From NCBI RefSeq assembly GCF_003334305.1, contig NZ_QOWS01000009.1: a stretch of 64,000 nt of DNA; one strand, given 5' to 3'. The DNA is from Escherichia coli. GTDB lineage: Bacteria; Pseudomonadota; Gammaproteobacteria; Enterobacterales; Enterobacteriaceae. Shown one piece after another: positions 5,150 to 49,100 of this stretch. Every line of letters begins with the position of its first letter. Position 1 is the stretch's first letter. A program made the translations under genes and the position numbers. Under the pieces are notes generated by a model. It had not been told where the DNA came from. It did not search any database and was given only the letters and a program-made list of their open reading frames with translations.

Positions 5150-7560
<2,411 letters not shown>

Positions 7561-7851
7561 GGTTCTCTCCCTAAAAATCTGTCTGGCAGGGTAGCGATTT
7601 GTGCGTATTGTCACGATTGAGATTTTTTAAGGTGAGAGGAAATTGATAACTTGTAGTTATGTGAAATCGCTATTTTCTGTAGCGTAGATGCATTCTTCTG
7701 ACTTCTTGTCTGAGAAAATGCATAAGAAAAAATAGGTTAAAATTGAGGGGTGGAAAAGAAAGGTGCAATGTTTAGCCATTGTGTTCACCGCACCTGGACT
7801 TTGGCTTACGCATCGGGCATCTCAATCAACAAAAAGAGTTTTTAGTTTCTG

Positions 7852-8676
7852 CTATTTCTTCTCTGTAATTTTTACACTGTTTTCCAACTGCTTGATGCTG
7901 ACCTGCGGGGTCGGCAACTCCTCAGGCATGGTTCCGCCAAGTTCCTGAATGGTTTGCCTCACCTTGCTACCCACGTCAAAGTGTGTGGTATTAGCTTGCT
8001 GTTTTGAATTCACGCCATCCCGCTTGAGTTTTTCTTCTGTTTGGGTAGCTCGAAAGAGATTAGCCGCCAGTTCTGTTGAACCCATATGATCCAGGATCTT
8101 CTGACTCTTTTTCAGCCCCTTCAGTTGGTGGATGGCTTTCTGATCTAATCCACCATACAGCCCCTGGTAACCATGATTCTGAAATATGGCGAAATCAGTA
8201 GCTGTCGCTACCCCAGCTTGCTGTGCTGCCTCAACCAATTGTTTGTTATGTTCTTTCAACTCATTTCTCAGAAACAGACGCTTTTCGTCTTCACGAAGTT
8301 GCTTAAATGCTTCATCGTCAGCAAGCTCCTGCCGTCGGGTCTGGATAGCAAAATAAGTCTGCCCTGCCGCAATGACCGGTTTCGCAGGGTCGCCGTTTTG
8401 TACTACCAGGTAACAGGCATAGCGGGAGAGATGAACATCTTCAAGTTCTCGTTGAGCCCCTGAACCTAATACAACCATTTTGGTGGTTTCAACGAAATGG
8501 TCAGATGCAGCTTGATTGCTGGCTTCGCACGCTTGAGTCGCGCGGGCCAGTACCTTTTGAAAATTGCGCCAGTCCCGATAATCCAGTAACGGTGCCAATT
8601 CTCTAGCTGACCAAAATTCTTGCCCTTCAGTGCCATAATGCCGTATTTCTTCAAAAGGTTGATGATGTTCGTTCAT
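7852..8676 (-). CDS. dinD: DNA damage-inducible protein D
   Basis: ORF 7852-8688; start trimmed to MNEHHQPFEEIRHYGTEGQEFW (274 aa); LexA box upstream. Confidence 0.9.
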   Translation of the reverse strand: MNEHHQPFEEIRHYGTEGQEFWSARELAPLLDYRDWRNFQKVLARATQACEASNQAASDHFVETTKMVVLGSGAQRELEDVHLSRYACYLVVQNGDPAKPVIAAGQTYFAIQTRRQELADDEAFKQLREDEKRLFLRNELKEHNKQLVEAAQQAGVATATDFAIFQNHGYQGLYGGLDQKAIHQLKGLKKSQKILDHMGSTELAANLFRATQTEEKLKRDGVNSKQQANTTHFDVGSKVRQTIQELGGTMPEELPTPQVSIKQLENSVKITEKK

Positions 8677-8719
8677 TGCCCACTCCATGTGATATCGATT
8701 GCAAAGAAAGTAAATCTGT

Positions 8720-8739
8720 AACTGTATTTATATACAGTT
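8720..8739 (-). promoter_or_regulatory. LexA (SOS) box in dinD promoter
   Basis: CTGTATTTATATACAG at 8722-8737 fits CTGT-N8-ACAG consensus, about 45 bp upstream of dinD start. Confidence 0.8.
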
Positions 8740-8828
8740 GTGAGTATCTCACGTTCTCAGTGTGCTGGGCAAAAAAACATCGCAAAATCTGGAGCAGGCA
8801 CGCAAAACAGAATTGAAGTTGCGGGGAA

Positions 8829-8862
8829 GAAAAATGCCGCTCTGTTTGAGTGGGCGGCATTT
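8829..8862 (-). terminator. rho-independent terminator downstream of yicC
   Basis: Minus-strand hairpin ATGCCGC...GCGGCAT followed by T-run, about 35 nt after yicC stop. Confidence 0.6.
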
Positions 8863-8896
8863 GTGAAGGCTGAAAAGTAAGAATTAGTGTTACGAG

Positions 8897-9760
8897 TTAC
8901 TCAATATTCTGAATCTGCTCGCGCATCTGCTCAATCAACACTTTCAGCTCGATGGCGGAGTTTGTCACTTCGGCATTGATAGATTTCGACGCAAGAGTGT
9001 TCGACTCGCGGTTGAATTCCTGCATCATAAAGTCCAGACGACGACCAACGGCTTCTTTTTTCTTCAGAATGTTGTAGGTCTCTTTGACATGCGCTTCCAG
9101 GCGGTCCAGTTCTTCGGCAACGTCAATTCGTTGTGCCAGCAGAACCAGCTCCTGCTCCAGACGGTTGTTTTCCAACTGAACCTGAGCATCTTCCAGCTTC
9201 GCGACCAGACGCTCACGCTGCCATTGCAGGATTTCCGGCATATGGGCGCGGACTTTGACCACTTCGGCGGTGACGCCTTCCAGACGCTGCTCGATCAATG
9301 CTTTCAGCGCCTGACCTTCGGTTTCGCGCGCGACGATAAAGTCGTCCAGCGTACCATCCAACGCCGCGAGAATTTCAGCGGCAATCGCGTCGAGATCCTG
9401 CTCCTGGGCTGCCATCACGCCCGGCCAGCGTAGAATATCAACCGGGTTGATTTCCCCTTCGTCACTCTGCATTTTTACCCAGTTCGCGGCAGTTACCAGC
9501 TGTTTAGCCAGTTTTTCATTGAGGATCAGCTCACCTTGTGCGCTAACATCTGGCTCATAGCGCAGGGTACATTCCACTTTACCGCGCGTCAGGCGAGAAC
9601 GAATACGCTCGCGAACGACAGGTTCAAGGCTACGGAACTGCTCCGGCAGACGAAAGTAAGTTTCCAGATAACGCTGGTTTACCGAGCGCATTTCCCAGGT
9701 TGCGCTCCCCCATTCACCCTTGATTTCACGCCGGGCGTAGGCGGTCATACTGCGGATCAT
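8897..9760 (-). CDS. yicC: UPF0701 protein YicC (YicC-family stress-induced protein)
   Basis: 287-aa ORF MIRSMTAYARREIKGEWGSATWEMRSVNQRYLE...; divergent from rph. Confidence 0.93.
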   Translation of the reverse strand: MIRSMTAYARREIKGEWGSATWEMRSVNQRYLETYFRLPEQFRSLEPVVRERIRSRLTRGKVECTLRYEPDVSAQGELILNEKLAKQLVTAANWVKMQSDEGEINPVDILRWPGVMAAQEQDLDAIAAEILAALDGTLDDFIVARETEGQALKALIEQRLEGVTAEVVKVRAHMPEILQWQRERLVAKLEDAQVQLENNRLEQELVLLAQRIDVAEELDRLEAHVKETYNILKKKEAVGRRLDFMMQEFNRESNTLASKSINAEVTNSAIELKVLIEQMREQIQNIE

Positions 9761-9886
9761 AGACGTTCCTGTTTATAAAAGGAGAGGTGGAAGGATTATA
9801 GCCATCGATGCCTTGTCAGGATAGGAATAACCGCCGGAAGTCCGTATAATGCGCAGCCACATTTGTTTCAAGCCGGAGATTTCAAT

Positions 9887-10603
9887 ATGCGTCCAGCAGG
9901 CCGTAGCAATAATCAGGTGCGTCCCGTTACCCTGACTCGTAACTATACAAAACATGCAGAAGGCTCGGTGCTGGTCGAATTTGGCGATACCAAAGTGTTG
10001 TGTACCGCCTCTATTGAAGAAGGCGTGCCGCGCTTCCTGAAAGGTCAGGGCCAGGGCTGGATCACCGCAGAGTACGGTATGCTGCCGCGTTCTACCCACA
10101 CCCGTAACGCTCGTGAAGCGGCGAAAGGTAAGCAGGGTGGACGCACAATGGAAATCCAGCGTCTGATCGCCCGTGCTCTTCGCGCGGCAGTAGATTTGAA
10201 AGCGCTGGGTGAGTTCACCATTACGCTGGACTGCGACGTGCTTCAGGCTGATGGTGGCACTCGTACCGCGTCGATTACGGGTGCCTGCGTGGCGCTGGCA
10301 GATGCGCTACAGAAGCTGGTGGAAAACGGCAAGCTGAAAACCAACCCGATGAAAGGGATGGTAGCCGCAGTTTCTGTCGGAATTGTGAACGGCGAAGCGG
10401 TTTGCGATCTGGAATACGTTGAAGACTCTGCCGCAGAGACCGACATGAACGTAGTGATGACCGAAGACGGGCGCATCATTGAAGTGCAGGGGACGGCAGA
10501 AGGCGAACCGTTCACCCACGAAGAATTACTCACCTTGTTGGCTCTGGCCCGAGGGGGAATCGAATCCATTGTAGCGACGCAGAAGGCGGCGCTGGCAAAC
10601 TGA
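9887..10603 (+). CDS. rph: ribonuclease PH, full length
   Basis: ORF 9863-10603; start trimmed to [20 protein letters not shown] (238 aa); reads through to ...ATQKAALAN with no frameshift. Confidence 0.93.
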
Positions 10604-10610
10604 TTTTTAA

Positions 10611-10636
10611 GGCGACTGATGAGTCGCCTTTTTTTT
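10611..10636 (+). terminator. pyrE attenuator hairpin in rph-pyrE intercistronic region
   Basis: GGCGACTGATGAGTCGCC stem-loop followed by TTTTTTTT, directly upstream of pyrE. Confidence 0.8.
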
Positions 10637-10668
10637 GTCTGTAGAAAAGTAAGATGAGGAGCGAAGGC

Positions 10669-11310
10669 ATGAAACCATATCAGCGCCAGTTTATTGAATT
10701 TGCGCTTGGCAAGCAGGTGTTAAAGTTTGGCGAGTTTACGTTGAAGTCCGGGCGCAAAAGCCCCTATTTCTTCAACGCCGGGCTGTTTAATACCGGGCGC
10801 GATCTGGCACTGTTAGGCCGTTTTTACGCTGAAGCGTTGGTGGATTCCGGCCTTGAGTTCGATCTGCTGTTTGGCCCTGCTTACAAAGGGATCCCGATTG
10901 CCACCACTACCGCCGTGGCGCTGGCGGAGCATCATGACCTTGACCTGCCGTACTGCTTTAACCGCAAAGAGGCAAAAGACCACGGTGAAGGCGGCAATCT
11001 GGTTGGTAGCGCGTTACAAGGACGCGTAATGCTGGTAGATGATGTGATCACCGCCGGAACGGCGATTCGCGAATCGATGGAGATTATTCAGGCTAATGGC
11101 GCGACGCTTGCTGGCGTGTTGATTTCGCTCGATCGTCAGGAACGGGGGCGCAGCGAGATTTCGGCGATTCAGGAAGTTGAGCGTGATTACAACTGCAAAG
11201 TGATCTCTATCATCACCCTGAAAGACCTGATTGCTTACCTGGAAGAGAAGCCGGAAATGGCGGAACATCTGGCGGCGGTTAAGGCCTATCGCGAAGAGTT
11301 TGGCGTTTAA
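10669..11310 (+). CDS. pyrE: orotate phosphoribosyltransferase
   Basis: ORF 10654-11310; start trimmed to [23 protein letters not shown] (213 aa). Confidence 0.95.
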
Positions 11311-11316
11311 AGAAAC

Positions 11317-11340
11317 TCGCCGGATGAAAAGTCATCCGGC
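11317..11340. terminator. bidirectional hairpin between convergent pyrE and slmA
   Basis: CGCCGGATGA-AAAG-TCATCCGGCG perfect inverted repeat. Confidence 0.6.
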
Positions 11341-11346
11341 GTCATA

Positions 11347-11943
11347 TTACTGCAACTGCGCGGCAATTAGCGGCCAGCGGGCGTCAAAATCATCCGTCGG
11401 GCGGTATTTAAATTCGCTGCGGACAAAACGTGACAGCATACCTTCACAGAAGGCCAGGATCTGGCTTGCCAGCAGGGTTTCATCGGTGGTGTAACCTTCA
11501 CCCTCACGCATTCTCTTTTCACGCAATACCTGGCGCAGCTGCGCTTCAATACGCTCGAACAGCTGGTTGATGCGCCCTTGCAGGCGATCCTGTTCAAACA
11601 TTAGCGCATGACCAGTGAGGATGCGGGTCAGGCCAGGATTACGCTCACCAAAACCGAGAAGCAGCAACACAATCAGACGCAGGCGCGCTGTGGTGTCTTT
11701 CTCATCTTTCAGAATCAGGTTGATGCGAGTAATCAGGCTATCTTCGATAAACTCAATCAGGCTATCGAACATGCGGGTCTTACTGGGGAAGTGGCGATAC
11801 AGTGCCGCTTCGGAAACGCCGACAGAGGCGGCCAGTTTTGCCGTCGTGATACGTTGGCTTCCATCGCTGGATTCCAGCATCAGCGCCAGAGACTGAAGTA
11901 TTTCCTCGCGACGGTTCCTTTTCGCAGTTTGTTTTTCTGCCAT
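11347..11943 (-). CDS. slmA: nucleoid occlusion factor SlmA (TetR family)
   Basis: ORF 11347-11985; start trimmed to [24 protein letters not shown] (198 aa). Confidence 0.92.
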
Positions 11944-12049
11944 GTTACAAAATACCCCTGAAAATAAGCACTTGCCAGGCGGCACCCACGCTATGACCGC
12001 AAACGAAATGTTTGCGGCTATGTTATGACGTTATTCGGATGCGTATGTG

Positions 12050-12508
12050 TTACTGACGACCAGAGTGACCAAAGCCGCCTTCACCGCGGTCGGTGGCGTC
12101 GAAATCTTCCACCAGATTAAATTCAGCCTGTACTACCGGAACAAAAATCATCTGGGCGATGCGTTCGCCAGGTTGAATGGTGAAGCTGTCCTGACCACGG
12201 TTCCACACGGAAATCATCAACTGGCCCTGATAGTCAGAATCGATCAATCCTACCAGGTTACCAAGCACGATACCGTGCTTATGTCCCAATCCGGAGCGCG
12301 GCAGCATCATTGCCGCCAGTGAAGGATCGGCAATATGAATCGCCAGCCCGGTCGGAACCAGCGTAGTGTCACCCGGAGCCAGTTCTACGGCGTCGTCGAG
12401 ACAGGCACGCAGGTCAAGTCCGGCAGAGCCAGAGGTGGCATAAGTCGGGAGCGGAAATTCCTTCCCAACGCGCGGGTCCAGAATCTTAACGTCGATTTTT
12501 TTCATCAT
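12050..12508 (-). CDS. dut: dUTP diphosphatase
   Basis: 152-aa [36 protein letters not shown]... Confidence 0.96.
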
Positions 12509-13706
12509 AACGGGTCACGATCTCGTCGAGTAATAATTGGCCAAGGAGCTCTTTGCGCTCAAGCGGTAAGACTTTATCTCCGTCCTGCCAGAAAAGGTGT
12601 AATGCGTTGTTGTCGCTGTTAAATCCTTGAGTTGGCTGGGAAACATCGTTCGCGCAGATCAGATCAAGGTTTTTACGGATACGTTTTTGCCGGGCGTATT
12701 CTTCCACATTATTTGTTTCGGCGGCAAATCCAACGACGTAGGGTCGATGGTCTTTTAGTGCGGCAACGCCTGCGACGATATCGGGGTTTTTAACCATTTT
12801 TATTGTTAATTCATCACCCTGCGTGGCCTGCTTTTTGATTTTCTCTGGGGCCACGGTAGCTGCGCGATAATCCGCCACGGCGGCGCAGCCGATAAAAATA
12901 TTTTGCTGCTGTACAGAAGCATTCACGGCGGCTTCCATTTCCAGCGCGGTCATCACATCAACACGTTTAACAAACGGTGGCGTCGGTAGTGAAACCGGAC
13001 CTGATACCAGCGTGACGTTCGCGCCACGACGGGCAGCGGCGGCGGCGATAGCAAAACCCATCTTGCCGGAGCTGTGATTAGAGATATAACGCACGGGATC
13101 GAGCGGTTCACGCGTCGGGCCGGCGGTAATCATAATGTTCAGATGTTTCAGGTCGTTGACGGGCGAAAAATGCGCTACCGCCATATCCACAATGGTTAAC
13201 GGATCGAGCATTCGCCCAGGACCGATATCACCACAAGCCTGACTGCCACTGTCTGGCCCCCAGATGAGCAAACCACGGGAAGCAAGCACCTCTAAATTAT
13301 GCTGCGTGGCAGCGGCACGGTACATCTGCTGGTTCATGGCGGGGAGCACGGCTACAGGCGCAGGTGTAGCCAGACAAATCGTCGATACCAGGTCATTCGC
13401 CATTCCGGCAGCAACACGGGCAATCAAATCTGCCGTGGCAGGGGCGAGAATCACTAAATCAGCCCATTTACCCAGCTCAATATGGCCCATAGCGGCTTCG
13501 GCTGCCGGGTTCAGCAGACTGTCGGAAACGGGATAACCAGAAACCGCCTGCAAGCTAAGTGGGGTGATAAAGGCTTTTGCCGCTTCGGTCATGGCTACGC
13601 GGACGTCGGCCCCGCGATCGCGCAAACGACGCACCAGTTCAGGGGTTTTATAGGCAGCAATACCGCCGCTAACGCCGAGAACGATTTTTTTACCGGCCAG
13701 GCTCAT
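12486..13706 (-). CDS. coaBC: bifunctional phosphopantothenoylcysteine decarboxylase/synthetase CoaBC
   Basis: ORF 12486-13778; start trimmed to [20 protein letters not shown] (406 aa, flavoprotein N-domain); 3' end overlaps dut start. Confidence 0.93.
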
Positions 13707-13871
13707 GATGATTTTTCCTGTTGGGTGACACCAGAAGTTGGCGATTTTATCACAATACTTTTGTTGTCGTGCCTTCACCTGAGAATCACTTTGCGAGGCG
13801 CTTTCCAGGATTGAAAACTGGCCGTCGATTTAACGGAACGGCTATGACAGGATGCGAGCACCACAAAGGAG

Positions 13872-14546
13872 GTGAAGGTGAAAAACAATTCACAGCTGAT
13901 GATGCCGCGCGAAAAAATGCTGAAGTTTGGTATTAGCGCCTTAACGGATGTCGAGCTGCTGGCGCTATTTCTGCGTACCGGAACGCGCGGTAAAGATGTA
14001 TTAACCCTGGCAAAAGAGATGCTGGAGAATTTCGGCTCTCTTTATGGCTTGTTAACCTCTGAATATGAACAATTTAGTGGCGTTCATGGAATTGGCGTGG
14101 CGAAATTTGCCCAGTTAAAGGGGATTGCTGAACTGGCGCGGCGTTACTACAACGTGCGGATGCGTGAAGAAAGCCCTTTACTCAGCCCGGAGATGACGAG
14201 GGAATTTTTACAAAGCCAGCTCACGGGTGAGGAGCGGGAGATCTTTATGGTGATCTTTCTCGACTCCCAACACCGGGTTATAACGCATAGCCGTCTTTTT
14301 TCCGGCACGCTAAACCATGTTGAAGTCCATCCTCGGGAAATTATCCGCGAAGCGATAAAAATAAACGCCTCGGCGCTGATCCTTGCACATAATCACCCTT
14401 CGGGTTGTGCTGAACCCAGTAAAGCGGATAAACTCATTACTGAACGGATAATAAAGAGTTGTCAGTTCATGGATTTACGCGTGCTCGACCATATCGTGAT
14501 TGGGCGTGGAGAGTATGTTTCTTTTGCCGAACGCGGCTGGATTTAA
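13872..14546 (+). CDS. yicR: RadC-like JAB domain protein YicR
   Basis: 224-aa ORF with JAMM-like HNHPSG motif; exact start codon uncertain by about 2 codons. Confidence 0.88.
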
Positions 14547-18221: not shown

Positions 18222-18262
18222 CAGTATTCAGGTAGCTGTTGAGCCTGGGGCGGTAGCGTGCT
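18222..18262 (+). promoter_or_regulatory. JUMPstart element with ops site in waaQ leader
   Basis: GGCGGTAGCGTG at 18249-18260 matches the ops consensus; upstream GGTAGC direct repeat; about 50 nt before waaQ. Confidence 0.85.
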
Positions 18263-20489: not shown

Positions 20490-21279
20490 ACTTAAAGAGC
20501 CGTTTGCCACGTTATGGCGCGGCAAAGATCCTTTTGAGGAAGTTAAAACCTTGCAGGGTGAGGTATTTCGTGAACTGGAAACTCGCCGTACTCTGCGCTT
20601 TGAAATGGCGGGCAAAAGCTATTTTCTCAAATGGCATCGCGGCACGACCCTGAAAGAGATAATCAAAAATTTACTCTCATTGCGGATGCCAGTATTAGGC
20701 GCTGACCGCGAATGGAATGCGATTCATCGACTGCGGGATGTCGGCGTTGATACTATGTATGGGGTGGTATTTGGCGAAAAAGGCATGAATCCGCTGACCA
20801 GAACTTCATTTATTATTACCGAAGATCTGACACCAACCATAAGTCTGGAAGATTACTGTGCTGACTGGGCGACTACCCCTCCAGATGTTCGCGTAAAGCG
20901 TATGCTTATTAAGCGTGTCGCGACGATGGTGCGCGATATGCATGCTGCGGGCATTAACCACCGTGACTGTTATATCTGTCATTTCCTGCTGCACTTGCCT
21001 TTTTCCGGTAAGGAAGAGGAGTTAAAAATTTCGGTAATTGACCTGCACCGGGCGCAGCTTCGCACGCGCGTTCCACGTCGTTGGCGGGATAAAGATCTTA
21101 TTGGGCTTTATTTTTCTTCGATGAATATCGGCCTGACTCAGCGGGATATCTGGCGGTTTATGAAAGTGTATTTTGCCGCCCCGCTTAAAGACATTCTCAA
21201 GCAGGAACAAGGACTGCTGTCGCAAGCAGAAGCAAAAGCCACAAAAATCAGGGAAAGAACGATTCGAAAATCGTTGTAA
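20482..21279 (+). CDS. waaP: LPS core heptose(I) kinase
   Basis: ORF 20473-21279; start trimmed to [21 protein letters not shown] (265 aa). Confidence 0.92.
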
Positions 21280-21294
21280 TTTCCGGAGAGAAAT

Positions 21295-22311
21295 ATGAGT
21301 GCCCACTATTTTAATCCACAAGAGATGATCAATAAGACAATCATCTTCGATGAAAGGCCAGCGGCGTCAGTGGCATCATCATTCCATGTTGCTTATGGCA
21401 TTGATAAAAACTTTCTTTTTGGTTGTGGTGTTTCAATCACGTCAGTTTTGTTACATAACAACGACGTGAGTTTTGTTTTCCACGTTTTTATTGATGATAT
21501 CCCTGAAGCCGATATCCAGCGTTTAGCCCAATTGGCGAAAAGCTATCGTACCTGTATCCAGATCCATCTAGTAAATTGTGAACGGCTTAAGGCATTACCG
21601 ACGACCAAAAATTGGTCTATTGCCATGTATTTCCGTTTTGTAATTGCAGATTACTTTATTGATCAACAAGATAAGATCCTTTACCTGGATGCTGATATCG
21701 CCTGTCAGGGAAACTTAAAGCCGCTGATAACAATGGATCTTGCCAATAACGTTGCTGCTGTTGTTACTGAACGCGATGCTAACTGGTGGTCGTTACGGGG
21801 TCAAAGTCTGCAGTGTAATGAACTTGAAAAGGGTTACTTTAATTCAGGTGTCCTGTTAATTAATACACTAGCGTGGGCGCAGGAGTCCGTTTCTGCTAAA
21901 GCGATGTCGATGCTTGCTGATAAAGCCATCGTTTCCCGTTTAACCTATATGGATCAAGATATCCTTAATCTTATCCTGTTAGGGAAAGTTAAATTCATTG
22001 ATGCTAAATACAATACGCAATTTAGTTTAAATTATGAATTAAAAAAATCATTTGTTTGTCCAATTAATGATGAAACCGTATTAATTCATTATGTCGGCCC
22101 GACAAAACCCTGGCATTACTGGGCCGGTTATCCAAGTGCGCAACCTTTTATCAAAGCCAAAGAAGCATCGCCCTGGAAAAATGAACCGTTAATGCGGCCA
22201 GTTAACTCAAACTATGCTCGTTATTGCGCCAAGCATAATTTTAAACAAAACAAACCAATTAACGGGATAATGAATTATATTTATTATTTTTATTTAAAGA
22301 TAATAAAATGA
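21295..22311 (+). CDS. waaO: GT8 LPS alpha-1,3-glucosyltransferase (R1-type WaaO)
   Basis: 338-aa GT8 retaining glycosyltransferase; first gene of the AT-rich outer-core block. Confidence 0.75.
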   Translation: MSAHYFNPQEMINKTIIFDERPAASVASSFHVAYGIDKNFLFGCGVSITSVLLHNNDVSFVFHVFIDDIPEADIQRLAQLAKSYRTCIQIHLVNCERLKALPTTKNWSIAMYFRFVIADYFIDQQDKILYLDADIACQGNLKPLITMDLANNVAAVVTERDANWWSLRGQSLQCNELEKGYFNSGVLLINTLAWAQESVSAKAMSMLADKAIVSRLTYMDQDILNLILLGKVKFIDAKYNTQFSLNYELKKSFVCPINDETVLIHYVGPTKPWHYWAGYPSAQPFIKAKEASPWKNEPLMRPVNSNYARYCAKHNFKQNKPINGIMNYIYYFYLKIIK

Positions 22312-22327
22312 AATTGAGAAAAGTTAA

Positions 22328-23323
22328 ATGAATGAATTTATAAAAGAACGGTTTTCGTATTTAGCAGATAATAAAAAAGAAAACGCCCCAGAGCTAAATG
22401 TTTCCTACGGTATCGATAAGAATTTTTTGTATGGTGCTGGCGTTTCAATTTCTTCCGTTTTGATTAATAATTCAGATATTAATTTTGTCTTTCATGTTTT
22501 CACTGATTATGTGGATGATGATTATTTAAAGTCATTTAATGAAACAGCAAAACAATTTAATACCTCAATTATTGTATATTTAATTGACCCCAAATACTTT
22601 GCTGATCTGCCGACGTCACAGTTTTGGTCGTACGCGACATACTTCAGGGTATTGTCTTTTGAATATCTGAGTGAAAGTATTTCCACACTGCTGTATCTGG
22701 ATGCCGATGTTGTTTGTAAAGGAAGCCTGAAACCTCTCACAGAAATTATATTTAAAGATGAGTTTGCTGCGGTCATTCCTGACAATGATAGTACTCAGGC
22801 GGCATGTGCAAAACGCCTCAACATTCCCGAAATGAATGGACGTTATTTCAATGCAGGCGTTATCTATGTCAATCTTAAAAAATGGCATGAAGCAAATTTG
22901 ACACCGTATTTACTCAAACTTTTACGAGGGGAAACTAAATATGGCTCTCTTAAATATTTAGATCAGGATGCGTTGAATATCGCATTTAATATGAATAATA
23001 TCTACCTTGCGAAGAATTTTGATACTATTTATACCCTGAAAAACGAACTTTATGATCGTAGTCATCGAAAGTATCAGCAAACCATTACCGATAAAACAGT
23101 GTTGATTCACTATACAGGGATAACTAAACCATGGCATAGCTGGGCTGGATATCCGTCTGCATCATACTTTAATATCGCGCGTGAACAATCTCCCTGGAAG
23201 AAATATCCTCTTAAAGAGGCGCGGACTGTTGCAGAAATGCAGAAACAATATAAGCATCTGTTTGCCCATGGTGAGTATATAAAAGGCATAACTTCATTAA
23301 TTAAGTACAAGCTTAAGAAATAA
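22328..23323 (+). CDS. waaT: GT8 LPS alpha-1,2 hexosyltransferase (R1-type WaaT)
   Basis: 331-aa GT8 paralogue; position between waaO and waaY. Confidence 0.7.
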   Translation: MNEFIKERFSYLADNKKENAPELNVSYGIDKNFLYGAGVSISSVLINNSDINFVFHVFTDYVDDDYLKSFNETAKQFNTSIIVYLIDPKYFADLPTSQFWSYATYFRVLSFEYLSESISTLLYLDADVVCKGSLKPLTEIIFKDEFAAVIPDNDSTQAACAKRLNIPEMNGRYFNAGVIYVNLKKWHEANLTPYLLKLLRGETKYGSLKYLDQDALNIAFNMNNIYLAKNFDTIYTLKNELYDRSHRKYQQTITDKTVLIHYTGITKPWHSWAGYPSASYFNIAREQSPWKKYPLKEARTVAEMQKQYKHLFAHGEYIKGITSLIKYKLKK

Positions 23324-23332
23324 ATTACTCTT

Positions 23333-24025
23333 ATGATTACAAGTATACGTTATCGCGGCTTCTCATTTTATTACAAAGATAATGATAATAAATATAAAGA
23401 AATCTTTGATGAAATACTGGCCTATAATTTTAAAACAGTAAAAGTATTACGTAATATTGATGATACCAAAGTATCATTGATTGATACGAAATATGGTCGC
23501 TATGTTTTTAAAGTCTTTGCCCCGAAAACGAAAAGGAATGAACGTTTTTTAAAATCTTTTGTAAAAGGTGACTACTATCAGAATTTGATCGTTGAAACCG
23601 ATCGTGTCAGAAGTGCAGGTCTTACTTTTCCTAATGATTTTTATTTTCTGGCTGAGCGTAAAATTTTCAACTATGCCAGTGTTTTTATTATGCTTATCGA
23701 GTATGTCGAGGGCGTAGAGCTCAATGATATGCCGATTATTCCAGAAAATGTTAAAGCAGAAATTAAGGCTTCAATGGAAAAATTGCATGCCTTAAATATG
23801 CTATCGGGCGACCCACACCGGGGTAATTTTATCGTTAGTAAAGATGGTGTCAGGATAATTGACCTATCCGGTAAAAGCTGTACGGCAGAGCGTAAAGCTC
23901 GTGATCGTCTGGCCATGGAACGTCACCTGGGTATTGCCAACGAAATAAAAGATTATGGCTACTATTCAGTAATCTACAGAACCAAACTACGCAAATTTAT
24001 TAAAAAATTAAAAGGCAAAGCGTAA
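23333..24025 (+). CDS. waaY: LPS core heptose(II) kinase
   Basis: 230-aa ORF; kinase-like; conserved position in waa clusters. Confidence 0.85.
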   Translation: MITSIRYRGFSFYYKDNDNKYKEIFDEILAYNFKTVKVLRNIDDTKVSLIDTKYGRYVFKVFAPKTKRNERFLKSFVKGDYYQNLIVETDRVRSAGLTFPNDFYFLAERKIFNYASVFIMLIEYVEGVELNDMPIIPENVKAEIKASMEKLHALNMLSGDPHRGNFIVSKDGVRIIDLSGKSCTAERKARDRLAMERHLGIANEIKDYGYYSVIYRTKLRKFIKKLKGKA

Positions 24026-24050
24026 ACCACACAGTCAAAACGGAACCAAC

Positions 24051-25076
24051 ATGGATTTATTAGCTGAGAGTATTACTGAAGTCGCTGTCTCTGGGGAAAT
24101 TGCTAACACCGATCGTGTGTTAAATATCGCTTACGGTATTGACCGTAACTTTTTATTTGGTGCGGCAGTATCTATGCAATCAGTTGTTATGCATAACCCG
24201 GACCTTGCGGTTAAGTTTCATCTCTTTACCGACTACATTGATGAAGATTATCTACAACGTGTTAATGCTTTTACCAGCAAAAATGCTAACGTTGAAGTAA
24301 TAATTTATAAAGTCTCCAATGCCTTTATTGATATCTTCCCCAGCCTGAAACAGTGGTCTTATGCAACATTCTTCCGTTTAGTTGCGTTCCAGTATTTGAG
24401 TGAAACTATTGAAAATCTGTTATATATCGATGCTGATGTCATCTGTAAAGGCTCATTAGCTGGATTGCTTGATATTAATTTTGATGAGGATAAGTTCGCA
24501 GCTGTTATTAAAGATGTGCCTTTTATGCAGGAAAAACCAGCGAAGCGTCTGGCTATAGAGGGACTTCCAGGGAATTATTTCAACGCCGGTGTAGTATATC
24601 TGCAGCTTGAAGCATGGGCGAAAAATGATTTTATGAATAAAGCCATTGCTATGCTGGCAAGTGACCCGCAGCACACGAAGTATAAATGCCTTGATCAGGA
24701 TATTTTAAATATTCTGTTCTTTGGTCATTGTATTTTTATTAGCGGCGATTATGATTGCTTTTATGGCATTGACTATGAGTTAAAAAATAAAAGCGATGAA
24801 GATTATAAAAAGACCATTACCGATGATACTAAGCTGATTCATTATGTTGGCGTAACGAAGCCCTGGAACGACTGGACGAATTATCCCTGCCAGAAGTATT
24901 TTAATGAGGCTTATCAGGCTTCTTGCTGGAATGATGTGGCGTTTATTCCAGCCACGAATGAAAAGCAGTATCAAGTGAAATATCAACATGCAAAGAAAAA
25001 TGGTGATACGTTTAACGCTTTTATTTACTTCATTAAATTTAAATTAAATAAGTATAAAAGAAAACTATTTGGATAA
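24051..25076 (+). CDS. waaW: GT8 LPS alpha-1,2 hexosyltransferase (R1-type WaaW)
   Basis: 341-aa third GT8 paralogue, sharing the NIAYGIDxNFLFG N-terminal motif with waaO/waaT. Confidence 0.7.
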   Translation: MDLLAESITEVAVSGEIANTDRVLNIAYGIDRNFLFGAAVSMQSVVMHNPDLAVKFHLFTDYIDEDYLQRVNAFTSKNANVEVIIYKVSNAFIDIFPSLKQWSYATFFRLVAFQYLSETIENLLYIDADVICKGSLAGLLDINFDEDKFAAVIKDVPFMQEKPAKRLAIEGLPGNYFNAGVVYLQLEAWAKNDFMNKAIAMLASDPQHTKYKCLDQDILNILFFGHCIFISGDYDCFYGIDYELKNKSDEDYKKTITDDTKLIHYVGVTKPWNDWTNYPCQKYFNEAYQASCWNDVAFIPATNEKQYQVKYQHAKKNGDTFNAFIYFIKFKLNKYKRKLFG

Positions 25077-25160
25077 TAATAAAAATCATGGATGTCTGAG
25101 TTACAATAATAATTAAGGATGAGTACTATCATATTTTATTAGTTCAGGCAAGAGAACACG

Positions 25161-26144
25161 ATGAGCAATGATTACCCTTTAGTATCCATAATAATACCGA
25201 CGTATAATTCATCTGATTACATTACTGAAACTCTAACGAAATTAGAAAAACAAACTTACCCAAATTTTGAAATTGTTATTGTTAATGATGGTTCTAAAGA
25301 TAACACATCAAACGTTTTGAGAGAGTATGGGTTAACCCACTCTCGATTAATTATTATCAATAAAGAAAATGGCGGTGTTTCGTCTGCCAGGAATACAGGT
25401 ATCCGCAAGGCGCAAGGACAGTTTATATGTTTTATGGATGATGATGATGAGATAGATCCTAACTATCTGCTGAAGATGTATACCAGACAACATGAGACGG
25501 GAGGGGATGCGATTTATTGTGGGCTTTATGGCCATTATATAAAAGATGGTGTTACTTACTCACCTATAAATACAGAGTTTAATGAAGGATCTTTACTTTT
25601 CGACTTTTTTTATAAAAAGGTTAGATTCCATATAGGGTGCTTGTTTATAAGAAAACAACTTCTGGAAGAGAATAATCTTTTTTTTGATGAAGATTTACGA
25701 CTAGGAGAAGATCTTGATTTTATCTATCGACTGCTAATTACATGCGATATGTATGCGGTTCCATATTATATGTATAAGCATAACTATAGAGAAAATTCCT
25801 TAATGAACTCATGTAGAACCATCACTCATTATCGACATGAGTCATTTGCGCACGAAAGAATCTACTCTTCTGTGATGCAGTTATACAAAGGTAACCGGAA
25901 AGAAGAAATTCATACATTATTGAGTCAAAATAGAGCTTATCATAAAACTCGTTATTTATGGAATGTTCTACTTAATGGTGATTTTAAACTATTGAATCAA
26001 TTAGTTGAAAACAATGATAAAGAATTAAGAGATTGTAATCTTCCTGGCAAGAGAGATAAGAGACGAGCAAAAATATTAGCATCAAAAAATTATATTCTCT
26101 GGAGGATGGTAAGACTGGTAAATAGAAAAAAGAATAAACGTTAG
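25161..26144 (+). CDS. waaV: GT2 LPS beta-glucosyltransferase (R1-type WaaV)
   Basis: 327-aa GT2 with SIIIPTYNSSDYITETL and FMDDDDEIDP motifs; a GT2 here (not GT25 WaaX or GT9 WaaK) indicates R1. Confidence 0.7.
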   Translation: MSNDYPLVSIIIPTYNSSDYITETLTKLEKQTYPNFEIVIVNDGSKDNTSNVLREYGLTHSRLIIINKENGGVSSARNTGIRKAQGQFICFMDDDDEIDPNYLLKMYTRQHETGGDAIYCGLYGHYIKDGVTYSPINTEFNEGSLLFDFFYKKVRFHIGCLFIRKQLLEENNLFFDEDLRLGEDLDFIYRLLITCDMYAVPYYMYKHNYRENSLMNSCRTITHYRHESFAHERIYSSVMQLYKGNRKEEIHTLLSQNRAYHKTRYLWNVLLNGDFKLLNQLVENNDKELRDCNLPGKRDKRRAKILASKNYILWRMVRLVNRKKNKR

Positions 26145-26189
26145 ATCTTGCATTAAATAACCCATCCTCGTAGCATAGGTTGAAACTAT

Positions 26190-27443
26190 ATGTCGTTTTG
26201 TTGGAATGAAATTAATTCTGGTATAAAGTCTTTAATTCTCATATTATGTATTTTTTCTTTAATGACTTTGTCTTTATGGGATGATGTTGCAACAAAGTTT
26301 CTTCATGCAGCTGGAATTATATCTGCATTGTATTTTCTTGCGACACCAAAAAAAACAATAACTAATAATCCTACTTTGTTAATTTTCATCTCATTATGTC
26401 TTTTGGGTATCGTAAATATCATCTGGTATTCACATTATAAAGTTTCAGGCTCTGTTTATACCAATGCATATCGTGGCCCAATGGAAACTGGAAAAATTGC
26501 CTTGTGTAGCGCTTTTATTTTCTTAGTTCTTTTTGCTAAAAATGAGATGAGAACAAAAATAAAATTTGGGAAACTAATTCTGTTCGCATCCCTGGCAACG
26601 CAGTTACTTTTTTTTGCGCATGCCATGTGGCAACATTTCTATTTAAACGTCGACCGTGTTGCATTATCAGCTTCCCACGCTACAACAGCAGGCTACATCA
26701 TCCTTTTTCCTTCTTTACTGGCATCAATTCTCATTTTAAAATCCGACTTTAGACATAAAACAACATTATATACAATTAACTTCATGCTTAGCTTATGTGC
26801 TGTCATAGTAACTGAGACGCGTGCAGCCATATTAGTGTTTCCATTCTTTGCGTTAATATTAATCGTAATGGATAGTTATATTAATAAGCGAATTAATTAT
26901 AAGTTATATTGTTTTATTACGATTGCATTATTAGCAGGTGTATTTTCTTTTAAAGATACATTGCTTATGAGAATGAATGACTTAAATAACGATTTAGTTA
27001 ATTATTCGCATGATAACACCAGAACTTCAGTCGGTGCCCGTCTGGCAATGTATGAAGTTGGCTTAAAAACATATTCTCCAATAGGACAATCACTGGAAAA
27101 ACGTGCGGAAAAAATACATGAACTAGAAGAAAAAGAGCCTAGATTGAGTGGCGCTTTACCCTATGTAGATTCTCATTTGCATAACGATCTCATAGATACG
27201 TTATCAACGCGTGGTATTCCTGGAGTTGTATTAACAATTTTAGCATTTTCAGCAATACTCATATATGCCTTAAGAACTGCTAAAGAACCTTATATTTTAA
27301 TCTTGCTTTTTTCACTACTGGTAGTAGGACTAAGTGATGTAATACTCTTTTCTAAACCGGTTCCGACTGCTGTGTTTATCACCATAATATTGCTTTGTGC
27401 TTATTTTAAAGCACAATCGGACCAATGTTTATTAGAGAAGTAA
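26190..27443 (+). CDS. waaL: O-antigen ligase
   Basis: 417-aa polytopic membrane protein at the canonical end of the outer-core operon. Confidence 0.88.
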   Translation: MSFCWNEINSGIKSLILILCIFSLMTLSLWDDVATKFLHAAGIISALYFLATPKKTITNNPTLLIFISLCLLGIVNIIWYSHYKVSGSVYTNAYRGPMETGKIALCSAFIFLVLFAKNEMRTKIKFGKLILFASLATQLLFFAHAMWQHFYLNVDRVALSASHATTAGYIILFPSLLASILILKSDFRHKTTLYTINFMLSLCAVIVTETRAAILVFPFFALILIVMDSYINKRINYKLYCFITIALLAGVFSFKDTLLMRMNDLNNDLVNYSHDNTRTSVGARLAMYEVGLKTYSPIGQSLEKRAEKIHELEEKEPRLSGALPYVDSHLHNDLIDTLSTRGIPGVVLTILAFSAILIYALRTAKEPYILILLFSLLVVGLSDVILFSKPVPTAVFITIILLCAYFKAQSDQCLLEK

Positions 27444-27457
27444 TGAATATGTGAAAT

Positions 27458-27486
27458 AAAATCAGCAAGGAAGCTGATTTTATTTC
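27458..27486. terminator. bidirectional terminator between convergent waaL and waaC
   Basis: ATCAGC-AAGGAA-GCTGAT hairpin flanked by A-run and T-run. Confidence 0.7.
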
Positions 27487-27512
27487 AAAATTATCTATTA
27501 AAGAGTTGTAAT

Positions 27513-28484
27513 TTAAATCATGGCAGCGTTTTCTTCAATGAACCGCTTAACAGCATTTGCTGTCAATTGAGACAACTCATTCCCCGGAGCCCTACAAACC
27601 ATCTGATTCTTCCCATACCCACCAATTAATCCCGGATCGGTTGGTCCATAAACCGTGATATTGGGTCTATCCAGTGCCGCCGTTAAATGGCTTAACCCCG
27701 TATCCACCGACACTACAAATTTAGCCCCGGCCAGCACGCGGGCAACGCCTTCCAGACTCATCTTCGGCAATACTTCAACATAAGCAAATCCTTCCGCCAG
27801 TCGTTTCGCCCGTTCTTCCTCATGCGGCGCGCCCCACGGAAGTTTAATCCGTATTCCTGAATCAGCCAGTAAACCAATCAATTCTCGCCAGTGTTCTTCC
27901 GGCCAGTGTTTATCATCACGGGTCGTCGCATGAAGAAATACGGCATATTCGCCAGCATCTGTAGGCAGGTTCGTCAGAAAATGCTGTGCGATAGCATAAT
28001 CGCCCTGGGTTTGCGGTTTGCTATAGCCCAAACTTTTGGCAAACAGTTCGCGGGTGCGTTCTACGGCGTGCTGCTGTTTTGCAATATGATGCTTACGATT
28101 GTAAAACAGGCTGGCTAAAGGTTCGCGAGCGGTTTGCCAGTCCATGCCATGCTTTACGCCATGCGCCAGACGCGTCACCAGCGCCGCGCTTTTTACCAGC
28201 CCCTGAGCGTCGATAACTGCGTCATAGTTCTCTGCTTGTAGCGCTTCACGAAACGCTTTGCGTTCAGCTTTTATAGGGGCCGAGAACCAGGCTTTACGCC
28301 AGCGACGTATTGCCACAGGAATAACTCGCTCAACGGCAGCGTGCCAGGAAGGAATCTGTGCGAACCCTTCTTCCACCACCCAGTCAAACTTAATTTCTGG
28401 GATTGCCTGCTGGGCATCAGTGAGTGCGGGCAACGTATGGAGAACATCGCCCATCGACGATGTTTTAACGATCAAAACCCGCAT
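27513..28484 (-). CDS. waaC: LPS heptosyltransferase I
   Basis: 323-aa ORF MRVLIVKTSSMGDVLHTLPALTDA... Confidence 0.95.
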   Translation of the reverse strand: MRVLIVKTSSMGDVLHTLPALTDAQQAIPEIKFDWVVEEGFAQIPSWHAAVERVIPVAIRRWRKAWFSAPIKAERKAFREALQAENYDAVIDAQGLVKSAALVTRLAHGVKHGMDWQTAREPLASLFYNRKHHIAKQQHAVERTRELFAKSLGYSKPQTQGDYAIAQHFLTNLPTDAGEYAVFLHATTRDDKHWPEEHWRELIGLLADSGIRIKLPWGAPHEEERAKRLAEGFAYVEVLPKMSLEGVARVLAGAKFVVSVDTGLSHLTAALDRPNITVYGPTDPGLIGGYGKNQMVCRAPGNELSQLTANAVKRFIEENAAMI

Positions 28485-30476: not shown

Positions 30477-30689
30477 AACTGTAACCTTCGAATTATGGAG
30501 TCAGAGACAATCTCAGACACGAATACTTCTATCATATCACTACACGGCGTTGGCTTCAGCCATTCGCCAAAAGTGAGATTGATGGACGTTATTTATCCTG
30601 AATTTTGCAGAAGTGTTAACGCGTCATCTCGTCGCGACCTATAAGTTTGGGTAATATGTGCTGGAATTTGCCCTGTCTGGAGAATCGCA

Positions 30690-46132: not shown

Positions 46133-46157
46133 CCTGATGCGCGTAACGCATCAGGCA
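46133..46157. repeat. REP-like palindrome / terminator downstream of adhesin gene
   Basis: GCCTGATGCG-CGTAA-CGCATCAGGC perfect palindrome about 40 nt after adhesin stop. Confidence 0.6.
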
Positions 46158-46197
46158 ATTTGGCGTTTGCCCTTAGTCACACTAACTTAATGGATCA

Positions 46198-49100
46198 TTA
46201 CCACTGAATACCGGCACCGAGTGCGGCGGAGTATTCACCCTGGCTATTGGTACTACCTTGTAATTTGTAGACCCAACGACCATTGGCGCTCACCATCGAT
46301 ACACCTAAAGCAACTGCCGATTCACCGTTGTAAGTACCGCCACCAATAGAAGCCATGCTGGCACCCGGTGTATAAGCCTGCGGCAGACCGGTCATTGCCA
46401 TTGCAGAAGCGATACCACCGCTCAACTTGCTTTCAGTTTTAGACAGTTTGTTATCCATTTCAACCATTCGCTGATCGGTGTATTGCTTCGTTTCCTGCAC
46501 GCTTTGCTTCAACTGCGCGTAATTCACCGCGTCGTTGTTGTTGACGCCAGCGGAGACGTTGCTGATACGAGTCGTACCGCCGTTGCCGCCACCGAGGGTG
46601 ATATTGCTATAGTCGATAGAACCATCAGCTTTGGTGTCGTAACGCACACCGCCAGCTTCGGAAGACTTCAACTGTGCCACGTTAACAGCATCGGTGTCGT
46701 TTTTACCTGCGGCTACGTTGGTGATACGACGTTGATTAGTAGATGAGCCTACAGAGATCGTATTTTCTTCGGTTGCCACAGACCCTGTACCCAGTGCGAC
46801 GCTGTTATCCGCGGCAGCAATGGAGCCAGAACCAATCGCGACGCTATCTTTACCCTGCGCGCTGGCATCTACACCATCGGTATTGGTCTTGAAGTACTTG
46901 GTGCTACCGGTGGTGACGATATCGCCAATACCGTTTTCGATATTGGTGACGCGTGAATCAAGATTCGTTACCCGATTATCCAGGTTAGTAATGCTCTGGG
47001 TATTCTGGGAAACCTGCGCATCCGTTACTTTCAACTGACCCACGTTGACCGCATCGGTATCAGCCGAACCTGCTGCGACGTTAGTGATCTGACGTTGACC
47101 ATCCGCACTACCGACTGAGAATTCACCGACAGAGTTCTGCGGTGCGTCCATGTTGTAGGCGGTATAATTGGTTTGAGCGCCACGAGTGGTCGTAGAACCA
47201 TTACCTATCGCAATACTGTTGACATGAATGACTTGCGCATTGCTACCAATGGCAATGCCGTTAAGTGCATTCGCGTCCACGTAGGCACCATAACCGATAC
47301 CAATACCTTTATCGCCATTCACGATGGTTTTCGCACCCATTGCCAGCGAGTCAGTTCCCACTGCCAGTGAATCTTCTTCCGTTGAATTAGCGTGGAAGTA
47401 TTTAGTCGGCGTGGTTGCGACCGCACCAATCGCATTCTGCAATTGACGAACCGTAACGGCGTCATGGGCTTCGGAACCATCGGCTACGTTGATGATTTGA
47501 CGATATTTACCGTCATCACCGATAGACAATGCACCGAGCAGTTCGCCATCCGTGGTGTCGTAACCAATAACAACGCCATTTTCCGTTATGCTGGTGTCAC
47601 GGGAGCCTTTGGCAATCACTCGGCTGGAAACAGAGCTGCTACCCAGGGCGATACCCGTATCAACGTCGCTGTAGCTGCCCTGACCAATAGCTACGCTGCT
47701 ATCGCCTTTGGCGACAGAGTTATAACCTATAGCTGTAGCGCCAACACCCTGTGCGCTGGCGTCGTTGAACGCTAAGCCGTCGTCGTTAGTACGCACATAG
47801 TTAATACCCGCACCGTTTTCTTGGATATAGGTTGCGTCGGTGTTACCAGCGAGCTGATTGATAATTTGGGTGTTCTGCTCAATCATCATATTCGTCGCAT
47901 TCAACTGAGAACCGTTCACTGCATCGGTACTGTCCTCACTAATACTGCCATTAGCGACATTAGTGATGATGCTGGCTTTACCGTCATGGCTGGCATTGTA
48001 GGCTCCAGCACCGCCATTGGCAGTCTCATCCCACAGCAAGGCGTTATCATCAAGCGCATCCAGGGCGTCACCGACGTTGTTGTACTCGGCGTTCGCAATG
48101 GTGTAAGTCGGTGCGGTGATGGTGCCGTCAGCGTTGACTTCTGCGTCACCACCCAGCGCATCAGCGATGTACTTATTGGTGGTATAGAGTTGTGAGCCGT
48201 TAATCGCGTCGCTGCTGGCAGCAGAGATTGCACCGTTAGCGACGTTAGTGATTACACTGGCAGTTTTATCTTTTCCGTGAGCGGCGCTAAATGCACCATT
48301 TTCACCGGCGTCCGCATCCCAGAGCAGAGCGTCGTCAAGAGTGGTATCGATAGCATTCAGGGCATCACCGACATTATCGTAATCAGCATTAGCAATGGTG
48401 TACGTCGGCGCAGTGATGGTGCCGTCTGCATTGACTTCGGCACCACCCCCCAGCGCATCAACAACATAACTGCTCACGCCGTGGAGTTGTGAGCCGTTTA
48501 CTGCGTCAGAACTGGAGTCTGAAATTTCACCATCTGCGACATCAGTGATCACGCTTGCGTCACCATTAGTACCGTGTTTGGCACTGAATTTACCTGCGGT
48601 GGCATCCCAAAGCAGAGCATCGCCGAGAGACGTGCTAAATGAGGAGTTAATCGCAGCCAGTGCATCGCCGACGTTATAATAATTTGTTTCACCGATTTTG
48701 TAGGTTGGACCGGTAAACACACCGTCAGTATTCACAGAAGCATTGCCGCCGAAGTAGGTGGCGATATTGCTGCTTAAGTCATAAAGCTGGCTACCGTTAA
48801 TGGCATCGGAACTGGTTGCAGTGACTGTGCCGTCCAGGATATTGGTGATTTTGCTGGCGGTATTGTTGCCATGAGCTGCAGTGAAGACACCATTGTCCTT
48901 ATCCCATTTCAGCGCATCCTCACCAAGATTAGTCACCGTCTCAGTCAGATTAGAGATGTTGGTGGTGTTAGTGGCGATATTGGTGGTATTCGTCGCCACG
49001 GCATCGTTGGTGGTTTTCAACTGAGAGCCGTTAACGGCATCGGTGCTGCCAGTCGTCAGGTCGCCATCTTTAACGTTGGTGATTTTGCTGGTGGTCTCGG

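Follow-up and report, generated by a model that had tools for sequence, protein, structure and literature searches.

Does the rph-pyrE locus of this Escherichia coli strain carry the rph-1 frameshift of MG1655, and what does the state of rph reveal about the background of the strain? The initial annotation of the stretch of DNA analyzed here (64,000 nucleotides, hereafter the window) had answered both parts of this question at once, taking an intact rph, together with a lipopolysaccharide core block and an adhesin gene, as signs of a non-K-12 E. coli. We find that the two parts need separate evidence. Our reading, to which we assign a probability of about 97%, is that the rph-pyrE operon of the window is an ordinary wild-type one, from a natural E. 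coli that lies outside K-12 and is essentially identical to strain A7.

Read directly from the window, the rph open reading frame (9887–10603, plus strand) begins with the ATG at 9887 and ends with the TGA at 10601–10603, giving 717 nt and 238 amino acids, and re-reading of 9887–10603 revealed no frameshift or premature stop. Its identification as the wild-type allele encoding full-length RNase PH draws on this translation, the A7 annotation, a profile match, and a database identity. The protein scores 380.8 bits against TIGR01966, the NCBIfam equivalog model for RNase PH (cutoff 141.5 bits), over profile positions 1–235 of 236, and solved RNase PH structures such as 1R6L align with it end to end (residues 2–237). 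It is exactly the same protein as UniProt RNPH_ECO24 from strain E24377A, and it was found on at least 1000 contigs. This is a genuine complete gene, and a chance open reading frame is excluded. RNase PH is a phosphorolytic 3′–5′ exoribonuclease that acts in tRNA and rRNA maturation, and identity with RNPH_ECO24 suggests that the protein encoded here would have the same activity. A promoter scan at its set thresholds detected no consensus promoter 5′ of rph, a weak test that tells little.

The rph-pyrE region was aligned with that of MG1655 (NC_000913.3), the comparison that had been proposed as a check, and the rph-1 frameshift is not seen in the window. The alignment contains a single indel: a run of five Gs in the window (GGGGG, 10553–10557, plus strand) is paired with GGGG in MG1655, whose rph is annotated in NC_000913.3 as a 687-nt 'truncated RNase PH'. 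Translation of the MG1655 allele shows that the frame after loss of the G ends in ...ARGESNPL*, a product of 228 amino acids that stops well before the attenuator, at a TAG that lies out of frame in the window (10572–10574, plus strand). In the window, which has all five Gs, rph continues past this point to its native TGA. Beyond the indel, the two sequences differ by 10 substitutions in rph, of which 2 change an amino acid, and by 14 in pyrE, of which 3 do so; the 126-nt yicC-rph intergenic region is the same in both. Syntenic annotation rules out that the wrong locus of MG1655 was compared. The initial reading of an intact rph without the frameshift thus stands, and its description of the locus as not a K-12 MG1655-type rph-1 background was exactly right.

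The native stop codon of rph is followed, after 5 nt, by the pyrE attenuator, an intrinsic terminator between rph and pyrE (10609–10636, plus strand) identified by terminator scan and RNA folding. The terminator scan gives a hairpin, AAGGCGACT-GATG-AGTCGCCTT, at 10609–10630, with a stem of nine pairs (five of them GC) and a loop of 4 nt, and then a T tract that extends to 10636. RNA folding places this hairpin at the center of the minimum-free-energy structure, which has −18.5 kcal/mol against −11.1 ± 2.4 in shuffled sequences (z = −3.1). When the whole window was scanned with Rfam, the pyrE attenuator matched no family. The 65-nt spacer from rph to pyrE (10604–10668) is identical in the window and MG1655. 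Downstream, pyrE (10669–11310, plus strand) encodes an orotate phosphoribosyltransferase of 213 amino acids (TIGR00336, 239.3 bits; A7 annotation). A pyrE attenuator hairpin following rph had been claimed beforehand, and the hairpin and T tract bear this out; of the limits given for the region at that time, the start at 9887 is exact and the end at 10636 falls on the last base of the T tract.

The 3′ end of rph is known as the translated leader of a UTP-sensitive attenuator of pyrE (Bonekamp 1984 and Jensen 1993, cited via PMC11148124, PMC9997739, and PMC5933015). For a K-12 sequence identical to that of the window, read-through into pyrE is known to rise at low UTP and to need translation of the rph 3′ end (PMC5933015, PMC11148124); in view of this identity, the attenuator of the window is predicted to be UTP-sensitive as well. 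When UTP is scarce, RNA polymerase would pause and the ribosome translating rph would stay close behind it. Because the rph stop lies just 5 nt before the hairpin, a coupled ribosome should then sit on the 5′ arm and block it, so that termination would fail and transcription would enter pyrE. In MG1655 and W3110, the loss of one G places the stop 29 nt further upstream and the ribosome releases too early, with constitutively high termination and low pyrE expression as the outcome, a defect that should be absent from the window. The published account of rph-1 is likewise that the early stop uncouples ribosome and polymerase, leaving pyrE under-expressed and the cell partially starved for pyrimidines (PMC11148124, PMC9997739, PMC5933015). 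From typical ribosome footprints, we infer that a ribosome terminating at the wild-type stop would cover the 5′ arm, whereas one terminating at the rph-1 stop would not. The geometry observed in the window, with the stop 5 nt from the stem as opposed to 34 nt for the rph-1 stop, fits the coupling account.

An open reading frame of full length could still encode an impaired enzyme, or the attenuator could be altered, such that pyrE expression remained abnormal. Two residues give this idea its substance, as the Rph of the window differs from the K-12 rph+ protein by V138A and I216T. The protein with these residues is, however, the very one that serves as the UniProt reference for E24377A and recurs on the many contigs noted above; the 1541-nt rph-pyrE segment that encodes it is matched at 100% in many natural isolates, including E24377A; and the attenuator and spacer are those of the characterized K-12 sequence. 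We therefore regard an impaired locus as very unlikely. The narrower proposal that A138 and T216 of Rph, with G14, L62, and S162 of PyrE, measurably alter the supply of pyrimidines or the processing of RNA when compared with the K-12 rph+ allele strikes us as extremely improbable. The rph-pyrE allele of the window is one that natural isolates commonly carry, E24377A among them, and a full-length rph with a normal attenuator in a wild strain is textbook knowledge; the wild-type reading leaves nothing in the region unexplained.

Whether an intact rph also speaks against a K-12 origin is a different matter. The rph-1 allele belongs to the lineage of W1485, MG1655, and W3110, and to EMG2 (PMC5379014, PMC9997739, PMC11148124), and K-12 strains reported as rph+ include RR1/HB101, JM83, DH10B, WG1, and NCM3722-type strains (PMC5379014, PMC11148124, PMC9997739). 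We rebuilt the K-12 rph allele with the missing G restored and looked for it in the complete genomes of 5426 E. coli. It is found at 100% over 1562 nt in C600, DH5alpha, NEB 5-alpha, DH1, DH10B, NEB10-beta, and MC4100, and also in BW2952, RR1, NCM3722, AG100, RV308, ER2796, and others. The exact 72-mer of rph-1, for its part, occurs in just 167 of 5424 complete genomes; in a spread sample from this search, two records were identical, strain HT-947 and a record of MG1655. An intact rph with five Gs is present in eight records that bear the label 'K-12 MG1655' (CP010438–CP010445); these are MG1655 derivatives in which rph has been repaired or has reverted. Since rph+ strains are numerous among the laboratory strains of K-12, an intact rph alone cannot identify a strain as non-K-12. 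The use of rph as a sign of a non-K-12 background consequently fails, since the feature does not discriminate, and the wording that the frameshift 'characterises common K-12 laboratory strains' was overstated for an allele of the W1485/MG1655/W3110/EMG2 lineage.

The background must be read from the rest of the window, which matches E. coli A7 (NZ_CP028767.1), isolated from orangutan feces in the USA. Direct string comparison shows A7 and the window to be identical over positions 1–25000, and the match is again 100% over 25001–50000. Across 13001–62000 the only differences are seven substitutions, all clustered at 61696–61742 in an rhs core fragment, which suggests a sister strain or assembly, gene conversion between rhs repeats, or a mis-assembly. 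In the A7 annotation, the surrounding region (59428–62000) contains an Imm57 immunity gene with a frameshift and, on the flanks of yibG, several fragments of rhs cores, in other words a decayed rhs toxin/immunity array. A second strain, WL164 (NZ_CP128642.1), carries about 8.9 kb of extra DNA within its match to positions 1–25000 and is otherwise identical; the extra DNA, which is absent from the window, has integrase and 'injection protein' genes and looks like the insertion of a small prophage or island.

Divergence from MG1655 is evident, and the near-identity that marks the K-12 lineage is not seen. Over the roughly 7 kb around rph (7434–14437), identity is 97.4%, with 171 mismatches in 7008 aligned bases; it falls to 88.4% across waaA–waaP and lies at 98–99.5% in other shared stretches. 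Gene content differs as well. The window has neither the K-12 core set of waaS, waaB, waaJ, waaZ, and waaU nor waaL in the rfaD operon, and htrL, which in MG1655 occupies about 1.3 kb between kbl and rfaD, is absent at the corresponding site (30525–30585).

Where K-12 has its own core genes, the window has an outer-core block (21295–27443, plus strand; A7 annotation) composed of waaO, a waaT-like GT8 gene, waaY, waaW, a GT2 gene at the waaV position, and waaL, which lies on the strand of the waaQ operon. The corresponding MG1655 core reads waaS-waaB-waaO-waaJ-waaY-waaZ-waaU, and its waaL belongs to the rfaD operon; window positions 21176–27585 have no match in MG1655 at the nucleotide level. 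The block has the gene content of an R1 core. For in silico typing we used primers for the R1, R2, R3, R4, and K-12 cores that we take to be those of Amor et al. (2000). Both R1 primers match the window exactly and predict a 552-bp product (26041–26592), whereas the R2, R3, and K-12 primers have no site in the window; on MG1655, which served as the control, the K-12 pair predicts a product of 917 bp. A single match was obtained with the R4 primers, that of R4K14 in waaW. The waaW gene is common to the R1 and R4 core types.

The distribution of the block across genomes agrees with this typing. It is complete in 1826 of the 5426 complete genomes, while about 700 share only its first 60% (waaO–waaW), at about 99% identity, and diverge at the waaV/waaL end, a pattern that would be expected for R4 and is consistent with R1/R4 mosaicism. 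The R1 type, whose prototype is F470, also includes B/BL21; in BL21 the block is 99.0% identical and is broken by IS1. The source names of the protein cluster bear out the name waaW, whereas those for the GT2 protein are generic and do not include 'WaaV'; because of this, the R1 assignment draws on the genes present, the primers, and the split among genomes, and on these the earlier identification of an R1 core block is supported. Upstream of waaQ, at 18222–18260, lies a JUMPstart RNA element (RF01707, 55.2 bits), the sole match in the window at the Rfam gathering level.

The second difference in gene content is a locus comprising ehaG, which encodes a trimeric autotransporter adhesin, and a DUF3251 gene (46142–52317, minus strand; A7 annotation). 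It is absent from MG1655, where only about 60 bp separate the flanking matches. Among the 5426 complete genomes, 4159 have the locus in some form, but it is matched over at least 80% of its length in only 1977, and many matches are at 79–85% identity; these low-identity matches are UpaG or YadA-like alleles, and the ehaG/upaG locus is highly polymorphic. Presence of ehaG is therefore the majority state in E. coli and is not special to this strain; K-12 is the exception. The adhesin gene does distinguish the window from MG1655, but in calling it an 'insertion' the initial annotation probably had the polarity reversed, because most genomes have the locus and K-12 is unusual in this respect.

Against this body of evidence we can set the proposal that the window derives from one of the rph+ strains of K-12 (C600, DH10B, MC4100, and NCM3722 are examples) or from MG1655 after repair of its rph. 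That such strains exist, and that the restored allele is matched at 100% in dozens of K-12 records, some of them labelled MG1655 (PMC5379014, PMC11148124), speaks for the proposal, yet it would have to accommodate the 10 rph and 14 pyrE sites at which the window departs from the K-12 allele, the 97.4% identity around rph and 88% across waaA–waaP, the missing waaS, waaB, waaJ, waaZ, waaU, and htrL, the presence of ehaG, the lack of sites for the K-12 core primers, and the identity with A7, and we give it next to no credence. Both versions, the rph+ K-12 strain and the repaired MG1655, were rejected on sequence divergence. The conclusion of a non-K-12 E. coli was thus correct, and is carried by divergence from MG1655, identity to A7, the different waa block, and ehaG.

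The value of the locus lies in provenance only: it comes from a natural, A7-like isolate that has ehaG and a core of the R1 type, and not from a laboratory strain of the MG1655/W3110 type. Because this is a natural isolate with an intact rph, expression of pyrE should escape the rph-1 polarity defect. The practical lesson is that rph status by itself is unfit for calling a strain non-K-12.

Four known systems place the window. With the R1 lipopolysaccharide core type it shares the waaO-waaT-waaY-waaW-waaV-waaL block on the strand of the waaQ operon, a likeness at the level of genes. The rph-1 allele of MG1655 and W3110 (Jensen 1993) occupies the same locus and has the same yicC-rph intergenic region, attenuator, and spacer, but it has four Gs, the frameshift, and the premature TAG, whereas the window has five Gs and neither of the latter, besides the substitutions in rph (10) and pyrE (14). 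The rph+ strains of K-12 (C600, DH1, DH5alpha, DH10B, MC4100, RR1, NCM3722) resemble the window in having an intact 238-amino-acid RNase PH and a functional-looking attenuator; they differ from it by 24 substitutions in rph-pyrE, by two amino acid changes in Rph and three in PyrE, and by the gene content of the flanks. Closest is the wild-type rph-pyrE operon of E24377A and A7, represented by RNPH_ECO24, from which no difference was detected: the 1541 nt and the protein are identical, and the order yicC / rph-pyrE / slmA is shared.
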